From: Octopus vulgaris
Taxonomy: Eukaryota
DNA length: 64,000 bases
NCBI GenBank assembly: GCA_951406725.2
Contig: OX597822.1
Coordinates: 80,600,001-80,664,000 of the forward strand
Direction: 5' to 3'
Shown: one piece after another, positions 15,450 to 50,114 of the stretch
How the letters are laid out: each line of letters starts with the position of its first letter
Position numbering within the stretch: position 1 is the first letter of the stretch
Notes under the pieces: generated by a model
What the model saw: only the letters and a program-made list of their open reading frames with translations
What the model was told of the DNA's origin: nothing
Database searches by the model: none
Position numbers and translations under genes: made by a program

Positions 15450-15563
15450 ATGTTTACAGCACCTAAGTTTCCCAAGCAGTCACCCATCTAAGTATTAACT
15501 AGCCTTGACTCTGCTTAACTTGGGTGATCGGACGAGAACCGGTGTTTTCAAAGTTATATGGCC

Positions 15564-15568
<5 letters not shown>
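15450..15568 (-). pseudogene. 5S rRNA-derived sequence (pseudogene or SINE3 head)
   Basis: Minus strand tacggccatataactttgaaaacaccggttctcgtccgatcacccaagttaagc...tacttagatgggtgactgcttgggaaacttaggtgctgtaaac is colinear with metazoan 5S rRNA over ~119 nt, with many substitutions. Confidence 0.88.
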
Positions 15569-15623
<55 letters not shown>

Positions 15624-47480: not shown

Positions 47481-47486
47481 TAAATA

Positions 47487-47580
<94 letters not shown>

Positions 47581-47590
47581 TATATATATA

Positions 47591-47968
47591 TGAAATGGCA
47601 AAAATAAGTCACGATGTGTTACCGCTACTGTATATAACTCACTTTGATATTTATCATTGTTTGATTTCACTTTTTCAATATCAGCGACAGTGGGCGCTGG
47701 AAAAAGTATAAGTATTTGTGAAGGAAATCTAATTCTCGGCGACAACTATGATTGTCACACGCTGACGAGAGGTCAATACCTCGAAACTCGAGTCCGTGTG
47801 TATCATAAGTTGAAGACGGGAAGGATGACTTCCCTTTGCAAATACTGACAGGACACAGAAAGTGTGTCTATGGCCAGCTGGAGGAGTGTGTCCTCCTGGG
47901 GCTAAAAACTACAGTAGCATCCACCCTTATGGGTTAGCCATATTGAAATGGCAAAAATACGTCACGAT
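47591..47968 (+). mobile_element. Retrozyme-like monomer: 353-nt unit plus 25-nt terminal redundancy, one central hammerhead
   Basis: tgaaatggcaaaaata(a/c)gtcacgat at 47591 and 47944; flanked by (TA)n on both sides; no meaningful ORF. Confidence 0.8.
47756..47800 (+). ncRNA. Intact minimal type I hammerhead ribozyme
   Basis: cacacg CTGACGA gagg-tcaata-cctc GAAA ctcgag TC cgtgtg. Helix I is a perfect 6 bp, helix II is 4 bp, the core is complete and helix III is palindromic; predicted cleavage after GUC at 47794. Confidence 0.93.
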
Positions 47969-48821
47969 ATATATATATAGATATAGATATAGATATAGAT
48001 ATATATGTTTATAACCGAATATATAAGTATATATATTTAAAAATATATTTATATATTAAAATATATATTGGAACCTGCTTTCACATATATACATAGGTCT
48101 ATGTATCGCAGCTAGTACGCATGAATGTATGTATGTACATAAATGCATCTATGTGTAAGTTTTGCCTATAACAATCTTCTTGTTAAAATTGTATATAATA
48201 AAAAAACGTTCACTAATTACATAAAGGAAGAAATCATTATTAAAATAATTATTGCGAAATGTTTGATAATTTTTTGAAAAATTGAAATAAAATACACTAA
48301 AATAATTATTTAAGGAAATCATTCAAATGCGAAATTATTGGGATTTTTTTGAGTTTTTGACAGTAAATTTAATATAAAGAGAAATTTAAAACAAGAAAAA
48401 AATTGTAAAATCTAAAACGACTTTGCAGCTACATTTCGCTGTTCATTCCTATCTCACTTTTACTAATTAATCTGTGCTTTTCCGCACGTTTACATATTTT
48501 CATACATACATACATGCATGCATGCATACATATATACATACATACATACACACATACATACATACATACATACATAAATACATACATACATACATACATA
48601 CATACATACATACATACATACATACATACATACATACATACATACATACATACGTTTCTTTGAGGAGAGGAAGGACCTGATTTCTGACAAAAATAAAATG
48701 GTCCAATTTTTGATTGTAGTCAATAAAGACAATGTTAAGTTTTTGCTTCATATATCTATATATATCTATATATATATATATATATATATATACTAAGATT
48801 AATTATAGCTATTTGTATATA

Positions 48822-50114
48822 CGAGGGGCGTTCAATAAGTAATGCCTCTGACCCACTTGTAGCTGTTTGATCTAGCTGAAAATTTATATGTGCAATTATT
48901 TATTTCTCTATAGATTAGGTGGCAAATTACAGCTGTGAACCACTTGTGGTTTCTGATATACAGGTGTTTGAACTGAGTCAAGTGTGAAATGGAGCCTGTT
49001 GAGTGTCGAGCAGTGATCCGGTTTTCGTATTTGAAAGGGCGCACACCACGGGAGACTTTTGATGAAATGAAAGTAACTTATGGTGATGATGCCCCATCAT
49101 ATGACCTTGTAAAACGCTGGCATCGTGAATTCAAGCATGGTTGGAACTCTGTGGAAACAGCTCCCAGATCTGGTCGCCCCCCTTCTGCCATTGATGAGGC
49201 ATCTGTCCGTCAAGTTGAGGCTGCCATTTTGGAAGATCGACGCATAACTATTCGCCAAATAGCCCATTGGGTCAAGTTTAGTACCGGGTCTGTGGAAACT
49301 ATCATTCATGACCATTTGCATATGCAAAAGGTGTCCGCCAGATGGATTCCCAGGTTGCTCACACCTTTCTAGAAGCAAGAACGCGTCGAGTGCTCGAGGA
49401 TGAATTTGGAGACGTGCCAAGAAGATGAGTCAAAAATTTTCAAAATACTGATTACACAGGATGAAACCTGGATCCATCACTATGATCCAGAGACCAAAGC
49501 CCAGTCAATGCAGTGGAAGCACCGTGACTCACCTCCTCCAAAGAAGGCAAGGGTGCCAGCCCTCCGCTGGCAAGGTCATGCTCACAGTCTTCTGGGACCA
49601 GGACGGAGTAGTGATGACAGATTTCCTGGCAAAGGGTACCACAATTACAGGAGCCTATTATGCTTCACTTTTGAGGAAATTAAGAGAAGCTATCAAAACC
49701 AAGAGGCGGGGCAAGATCAGCAAAGGCATCCTCCTCCTGCAGGACAACGCACTGGTCTACAACTCGCGTGTCGCCAGATCAGAAGCACAGGCGTGCAGCT
49801 ATGAACTCCTCCCCCATCCCCTTACTCTCCTGACCTTGCACCCTCTGATTTTCCCCTCTTCCCAGCCATGAAGTTGTTTTTGAAAGGAAAGCGTTTCCCA
49901 GATGATGCAGCCTTGATTTCTGAAGTCACGTCGTGGTCGGAGGACCAAGCTGGGGTCTTCTACAAAAACGGTCTTCAGAGTTGCATCAAACGATGGGAGA
50001 AATGTGTAACTCTGAGTGGTTCCTATGTAGAAAAAGACTAATAACTGTGCCAAGTTTCGTTGCTCTACTGCTATGGGAATTGGGTCAGGGGCATTACTTA
50101 TTGGACGCCCCTCG
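48822..50114 (+). mobile_element. Full-length mariner (DD34D) transposon, copy 1
   Basis: TA|cgaggggcgttcaataagtaatgcc...ggcattacttattggacgcccctcg|TA; ~33-bp TIRs with TA duplication; 1293 bp. Confidence 0.97.
48989..50041 (+). pseudogene. Mariner transposase pseudogene
   Basis: HTH, WIPRLL, TQDETWIHHY, QDNA and YSPDLAPSDF motifs; stop at 49370-49372 and frameshifts near 49557 and 49820. Confidence 0.95.

Follow-up and report, generated by a model that had tools for sequence, protein, structure and literature searches.

The element at positions 47591 to 47968 of the Octopus vulgaris window (the whole stretch of 64,000 nucleotides that was analysed) is a one-armed insertion, 378 nt long, of a young, dispersed, non-coding family with a 353-nt unit; it starts from a fixed 3' end, here called site A, and is 5'-truncated at unit position 1. 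On our overall reading, which we consider likely, this hammerhead family is copied into (TA)n tracts from two internal sites by a reverse transcriptase (RT)-endonuclease of the type found in Penelope-like elements (PLEs), and the RNA that is copied is possibly circular. Among the members of the family, the window copy is an ordinary one that was truncated.

The window copy comprises one full unit (47591..47943, plus strand; 42% GC, longest ATG-started frame 38 aa) followed by positions 1-25 of the next repeat (47944..47968, plus strand), which reach up to site A. The end at 47968 would be the point where reverse transcription started, its last AT being ambiguous with the target. The left occurrence of the 25-mer (47591..47615, plus strand) marks the 5' truncation point at unit position 1-2; its edge overlaps the TA tract by 1 nt and adjoins the ATAT of the unit at 350-353. 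Next to it lies a segment called the tail (unit 26-72; 47616..47662, plus strand), which runs from site A to a second 3' end site, site B, and the equivalent of site B (about 47657-47662, plus strand) is internal in this copy. Target microsatellites are present on the left, (TA)n/(TATG)n at 47481..47590, and on the right, (TA)n/(TAGATA)n at 47969..48008, consistent with the first-pass annotation, which had placed (TA)n beyond both copies of a 25-bp direct repeat with one mismatch. That repeat was also recovered as described: 47591-47615 and 47944-47968 agree at 24 of 25 positions at an offset of 353, the mismatch is at 47607/47960, and the match ends on both sides of the repeat. Compared to the family majority, the window copy differs at unit positions 17 (47607) and 340 (47930), and it has the common variant at position 104. 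Elsewhere in the window we observed a 5S rRNA match of 80.2 bits (15451-15569, minus strand), a 349-aa frame with the LINE-type endonuclease domain PF14529 (45720-46769, minus strand) and broken frames that we take to resemble a mariner-type transposase (48820-49871, plus strand).

The window lies on contig C9 (our numbering) of a 2.8-Gb assembly of 227 contigs. Genome-wide, a 20-mer from unit positions 2-21 has 516 exact matches and the 33-nt ribozyme core has 439, with 0 for the reversed control of each. A total of 71 loci were mapped on a tandem ruler: 23 best full-length matches, a choice biased to long copies, 29 matches to the 20-mer on C1-C2 and 19 matches to the ribozyme core without the 20-mer on C1-C3. 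After removals 70 insertions were kept; left out were L041 (a segmental duplicate of L034), L094 (the same insertion as L080), repeat views and side pieces in L048 and L080, and L057 was kept, though it is possibly the far end of the L017 event. Lengths range from 29 to 2122 nt, and tandem arrays of up to 6 units with 95-99% identity are present. This bears out the earlier assignment by class and size to non-LTR retrozymes, the copies being tandem multimers of one 353-nt unit. A looser motif common to sister families has 6471 matches genome-wide, and a superfamily of related short hammerhead repeats could be recognized (L181-L210, L071, L089, L140, L142, L146, L154), several of them two-armed. 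One branch of this superfamily is mostly outside TA tracts, and the sister-family copies inspected, an uncounted set, end at the counterparts of sites A and B. Whole insertions have also been duplicated at the DNA level in mirror (L247), segmental (L034/L041) and tandem (L248) form. Of 24 runs listed, 20 contain the stretch and none is recorded as RNA. Contigs of the family and its sister families were found in four runs that we guessed to be RNA, for which a control on neighbouring silent DNA is lacking; one 383-nt contig in run X5 covers a full unit. Such contigs show neither strand, ends, level nor circularity, and we give them no weight as a sign of expression.

Mapping of the ends revealed that 3' ends are fixed while 5' ends are scattered round the unit in the 70 insertions. 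Site A (unit 21-25) and site B (unit 61-72), two intervals which are about 46 nt apart and make up 5% of the unit, account for 99 of the 106 3' ends, and 100 of the 106 adjoin TA. The copies are thus not the random circular permutations for which a check had been proposed. The exact A junction of the window copy's subfamily is present at no fewer than 171 places in the genome, the window included, and the sequence round position 25 continues into the unit at 261 places, which upholds the earlier view that the 25-mer belongs to the element and is no target duplication. The B junction occurs at 64 forward-strand places, the reverse count being inflated by double listing.

Head-to-head insertions, referred to as two-armed, make up 36 of the 70. 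In 32 of these one arm ends at A and the other at B, none has two A ends or two B ends, and 4 have one odd end; the 34 one-armed insertions end at A in 27 cases, at B in 4 and elsewhere in 3. The same one-A/one-B rule is seen among outward-facing junction pairs collected from C1 to part of C9 (85 A and 75 B places), where 33 of the 34 pairs are AB and none is AA, and where the sole BB pair traces back to an AB insertion that was duplicated in mirror image at the DNA level. Sixteen of these 33 AB pairs overlap the first sample and 17 are new, two of the new ones being a local duplicate. At the 31 head-to-head joints examined, the arms overlap by 1-6 nt in 20, abut in 3 and leave a gap in 8. A 12-nt target duplication flanks L076, which is outside TA, in 1 of the 17 loci examined, and TA tracts cannot resolve such duplications. 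In L067 (1512-1982) we observed an arm with an internal B end, as if copying had restarted at B after a halt near the cut site.

These features make it very probable that the retrozyme is inserted by PLE-type priming at fixed sites. PLE insertions have been described as having 5' truncation, partial tandems, an inverted 5' copy, a tail at one end and a bias to TA (PMC8557442, PMC3846280). A PLE protein assayed in vitro was able to cut the two strands of its target and extend each of them, and the tail corresponded to the span between two internal RNA start sites of the RT (PMC11167929). The octopus genome harbours intact elements with RT and GIY-YIG domains that carry a CxxxxCxxC motif, which has been ascribed to Neptune/Nematis (PMC8557442). 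One young PLE family of Neptune/Nematis type, near-identical across 40 scored copies, has TA-anchored ends at two sites about 33 nt apart, and all 4 of its two-armed copies examined have A+B ends. A GIY-YIG family search of the genome gave 6136 candidates. In a search for PLE ends homologous to the unit, on PLE loci from the few families sampled of these candidates, blastn and a covariance model run over 66 sources matched only separate retrozyme copies. Neither a closer look at three RT+GIY-YIG families nor tblastn round 30 of the 6471 motif loci yielded a PLE whose ends resemble the unit. PLE ORFs are adjoined by copies of the family at two loci (L095 and L023), and neither PLE copy has the unit at its own 3' end.

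Some further observations concern the PLEs themselves. L023 (1-1978; G000:C17:47.71 Mb) has a retrozyme arm head-to-head with a 5'-truncated PLE arm, with no TA between them, and the far end of the PLE arm is the longer TA-anchored end of its family; at this locus a single event may have been primed on two separate RNAs, or an insertion may have come later and been accompanied by a deletion. Two young RT+GIY-YIG families (L148:1318-5021, plus strand, and L242) have an upstream frame of 479 and 454 aa, respectively, with an overlap of about 80-90 nt into the RT-endonuclease frame of 781 and 775 aa, whereas endonuclease-containing (EN+) PLEs are described as single-ORF elements. The L242 family forms a tandem unit of 4271 bp. 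Hammerhead-like motifs with variant cores, CCGAAGA and UUGAAAA (U3:A8 form), were read by eye in two autonomous families (L142:5496-5545; 3' regions of L212-L224).

The type I hammerhead motif of the window copy, with a short palindromic helix III, is located at 47756..47800 on the plus strand, within an extended helix I at about 47743-47812 (plus strand). Its core consists of CUGACGA (47762-47768) and GAAA (47783-86), helix II pairs GAGG with CCUC (47769-72/47779-82), helix III has 2 bp round the palindrome UCGA and helix I has 6 bp. The cleavage triplet is GUC with C17 at 47794, and the cut is predicted after this position (47794/47795). The Rfam model Hammerhead_1 matches with 32.2 bits (E 4.6e-6) at a gathering score of 34, and the hammerhead is absent from the list of a gathering-level Rfam scan of the window; no second hammerhead of such topology was found on either strand of the 64 kb. 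The hammerhead had been called perfect, with its cut at 47794, and this holds for the core, which is intact, but not for helices III and II in the predicted fold of the unit as a circle, where their probabilities come out at about 0 and about 0.3, respectively. The unit folded as a circle has an energy of -114 kcal/mol (z -6.7 against 60 shuffles). The motif has the canonical metazoan form, which is reported to need a second copy for good cleavage (PMC4209133), and 8 of 9 Xenopus retrozyme dimers are reported without cleavage in vitro (bioRxiv 2026.07.22.740005). Changes within the ribozyme core of the octopus family (6/2031, versus 240/52891 elsewhere) indicate that the core is only slightly better kept than the rest.

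The region at 47823..47968 (plus strand), which reaches site A, is conserved across sister families and contains predicted hairpins; it is a candidate for the RT recognition region. In 19 sequences from the family and its sister families (62% mean column identity), the hairpins before site A still pair, and the helix enclosing site A also keeps its pairing, with some two-sided changes and with mixed results in the controls. In the sister-family alignment 87% of cells pair and 7 of 41 pairs change on both sides, a count that was matched by 160 of 500 shuffles in sequences that are related. The pattern is therefore only suggestive of a conserved RNA structure in the sister families.

Variants within insertions bear on the template. 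Within an insertion, a common variant is carried by every covering unit in 55 instances and is mixed in 10, where an independent draw expects 7.6 and 130, and the two arms agree in a common variant in 32 of the 38 informative comparisons. Of the rare variants, 20 are carried by every covering unit, 5 are partial and 126 occur in one unit only; those that are carried by every unit and span both inverted arms number 11 in 7 loci (L077 excluded, its pieces being on one strand). For rare variants to have reached every unit, there must at some generation have been a monomer bottleneck, and a circle offers the simplest way through it. Copying has passed the cut site 144 times, 5' ends at unit positions 200-210 are only 2 of 106 (3.3 expected), and no 5' junction is common to independent insertions. 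A linear self-cleaved monomer was rejected as the usual template on these read-throughs and 5' ends, which show no run-off at the ribozyme cut. Four mixed arrays (L008, a mosaic, L025, L030 and L089) require a multimeric template or template switching, and in L089 a present/absent pattern at position 184 recurs in register from one arm to the other, in keeping with a single multimeric RNA as the template of both. An array may also owe its homogeneity to a tandem transcript that was already homogeneous. Judged from these sequence patterns, the usual template would somewhat more readily be a monomer circle; circular RNAs have been shown for animal retrozymes in mussel, coral and axolotl (PMC7229834).

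The best-surviving rival keeps the same PLE machinery and lets it copy linear multimeric RNA that was transcribed from a tandem array and left uncut, with no circle and with the hammerhead as a passenger. It would account for the in-register mixed pattern of L089 and for the mosaic L008, arrays of up to 6 units exist as its sources, and PAc, the one PLE tested in vitro, inserts uncut RNA, its ribozyme mutants inserting normally (PMC11167929). The rare variants fixed across all units, however, call for the monomer bottleneck, constant 5' truncation would shrink arrays with no route to regrow them, and no daughter has the 5' junction of its source. We therefore regard this alternative as rather unlikely, though by no means negligible.

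The two arms could also stem from fold-back self-priming or from endonuclease resolution of an intermediate, as proposed for PLEs (PMC3846280, PMC8557442), instead of from two target-primed starts, and small fold-back pieces are indeed seen at some 5' ends (L095, L017). The arms themselves are not easily reconciled with this idea. The B arm has the tail sequence which is missing from the A arm, and either arm may be far longer: in L014 the A arm is 2122 nt and the B arm 618 nt, and in L027 the B arm is 1478 nt and the A arm 181 nt. Neither arm can thus be a fold-back copy of the other, and the head-to-head junctions are asymmetric as well, which leaves such an origin of the arms improbable.

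The first-pass annotation had read the terminal redundancy as the trace of an RT that ran slightly more than once round a circle, or copied part of an array, so that the insert is circularly permuted. In its circle form this reading amounts to entry at any point and an overshoot of 25 nt. The window copy does measure 353+25 nt, and cut-site read-through and array homogeneity fit a circle. Arbitrary entry is refuted by the clustering of 3' ends at two sites and by the at least 171 places with exactly the 3' end of the window copy; with lengths from 29 to 2122 nt a 25-nt overshoot is atypical for the family, and only L001 and L063 among the 70 insertions have this layout, so we give this version very little credence. 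The head-to-head arms and the two-site tail, which are more informative than the redundancy, had gone unremarked in the first pass. The 25-bp redundancy results from a start at site A combined with truncation at position 1; it is a by-product and has no separate mechanism. On its own it is no proof of a circle, because a tandem transcript copied over 378 nt would leave the same layout. Among the one-armed insertions, 5 of 34 5' ends fall within positions 345-5 (1.3 expected, p 0.01, uncorrected and with the interval chosen afterwards), a mild enrichment beside the ATAT of the unit, where the window copy is truncated. A solo LTR, a target-site duplication or a DNA-level satellite with a chance ribozyme motif is excluded, for although 3' ends are shared between copies and duplications of whole insertions do occur, the 25-mer is internal to the unit, the 5' ends vary where a solo LTR was expected to have identical ends in all copies, and the copies are dispersed, strand-polar and TA-anchored.

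With PLE-type priming at two sites as the preferred reading, the following course of events can be proposed. Tandem copies would be transcribed, and their hammerheads, probably acting as dimers, would release 353-nt monomers, and circles may form from these by the action of host ligases. A PLE protein, which is probably dimeric, would bind the structured region before and round the tail and cut both strands of a TA tract. One DNA end would then prime at site A, priming of the other end at site B would follow in roughly every second event, and each RT would pass the cut/ligation site for a variable length. Finally, the two cDNAs would join head-to-head via short microhomology, or a single cDNA would join the TA tract. 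The window copy would be the one-armed case, halted after 378 nt. More tentatively, and with odds that we put slightly below even, a dimeric PLE RT-endonuclease may prime at A and B on one and the same circle, with both enzymes circling it, a mode which could be termed twin rolling-circle target-primed reverse transcription (TPRT).

By its sequence features the 353-nt family belongs to the animal non-LTR retrozymes. It has a type I hammerhead in each unit and tandem, non-coding units of 353 nt (within the range of about 170-400) with GC below 50%, and it has no LTR, its 5' ends being variable and the target duplication of L076, at 12 nt, exceeding 4 bp. A plant LTR retrozyme or its solo LTR (type III hammerhead, identical ends, 4-bp target-site duplication) was rejected on the type I topology and the variable 5' ends. 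The family also displays the traits of non-autonomous PLEs, namely 5' truncation, partial tandems, an inverted 5'-truncated copy and AT-rich or (TA)n targets; an ORF with RT plus GIY-YIG, as in autonomous PLEs, was not found in the unit.

In comparison to the retrozymes described by Cervera and de la Pena (2020, PMC7229834; mussel 350-390 nt, axolotl Rtz331/Rtz353), the octopus family has similarly short tandem units with one type I hammerhead each, less than 50% GC, no ORF and a short palindromic helix III that suggests dimeric cleavage. Expression, cleavage and circles have been shown for the former, whereas the octopus family is known here from the genome; in turn, fixed 3' ends, two-armed insertions and TA targeting do not feature in the sections of that description on which we draw, where PLEs are a strong candidate partner. 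Mobilisation of retrozymes by PLEs was proposed there and has been argued from homology by Li, Clavereau and Pollet (bioRxiv 10.64898/2026.07.22.740005), who treat retrozymes as non-autonomous PLE derivatives. Their partner class is the same as ours, but their case concerns vertebrates, draws on co-occurrence and pLTR homology and models local tandem amplification, whereas ours concerns an invertebrate and takes the insertion footprint as evidence, the PLE loci sampled having yielded no pLTR homology. EN+ PLEs (Poseidon PAc, PMC11167929; PMC8557442, PMC3846280) are alike in 5' truncation, partial tandems, the inverted 5' copy, a tail at a single end, AT-rich targets and two start sites downstream of the hammerhead. 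Unlike them, the octopus family has no RT/GIY-YIG ORF, its repeat unit is the whole element, and its tail is about 46 nt as compared to the 30-40 nt usually reported for PLEs. Non-autonomous Chlamys PLEs such as MRC1 are likewise non-coding, head-to-tail multicopy and PLE-mobilised, but have 3' sequence in common with an autonomous family and belong to the green lineage, in a clade where canonical hammerheads are reported absent (PMC8557442). The literature searched, mostly without subscription papers, yielded no paper on octopus retrozymes or on the one-A/one-B rule.

The family probably adds a cephalopod example to the retrozymes. The enzyme that moves animal retrozymes has so far been argued from co-occurrence and homology, and the insertion footprint adds evidence for PLEs that is independent of these and mechanistic in kind. 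It has long been noted that PLE insertions are inverted in structure and have their tail on one side; the A/B rule, together with the haplotype common to both arms, turns this into a prediction that is precise enough for the in vitro assay already in use for PLEs. If twin rolling-circle TPRT is true, it would explain the multimers of retrozymes, the head-to-head layout of PLEs and their tail at one end, and the 353-nt unit would be a minimal substrate on which to test it.
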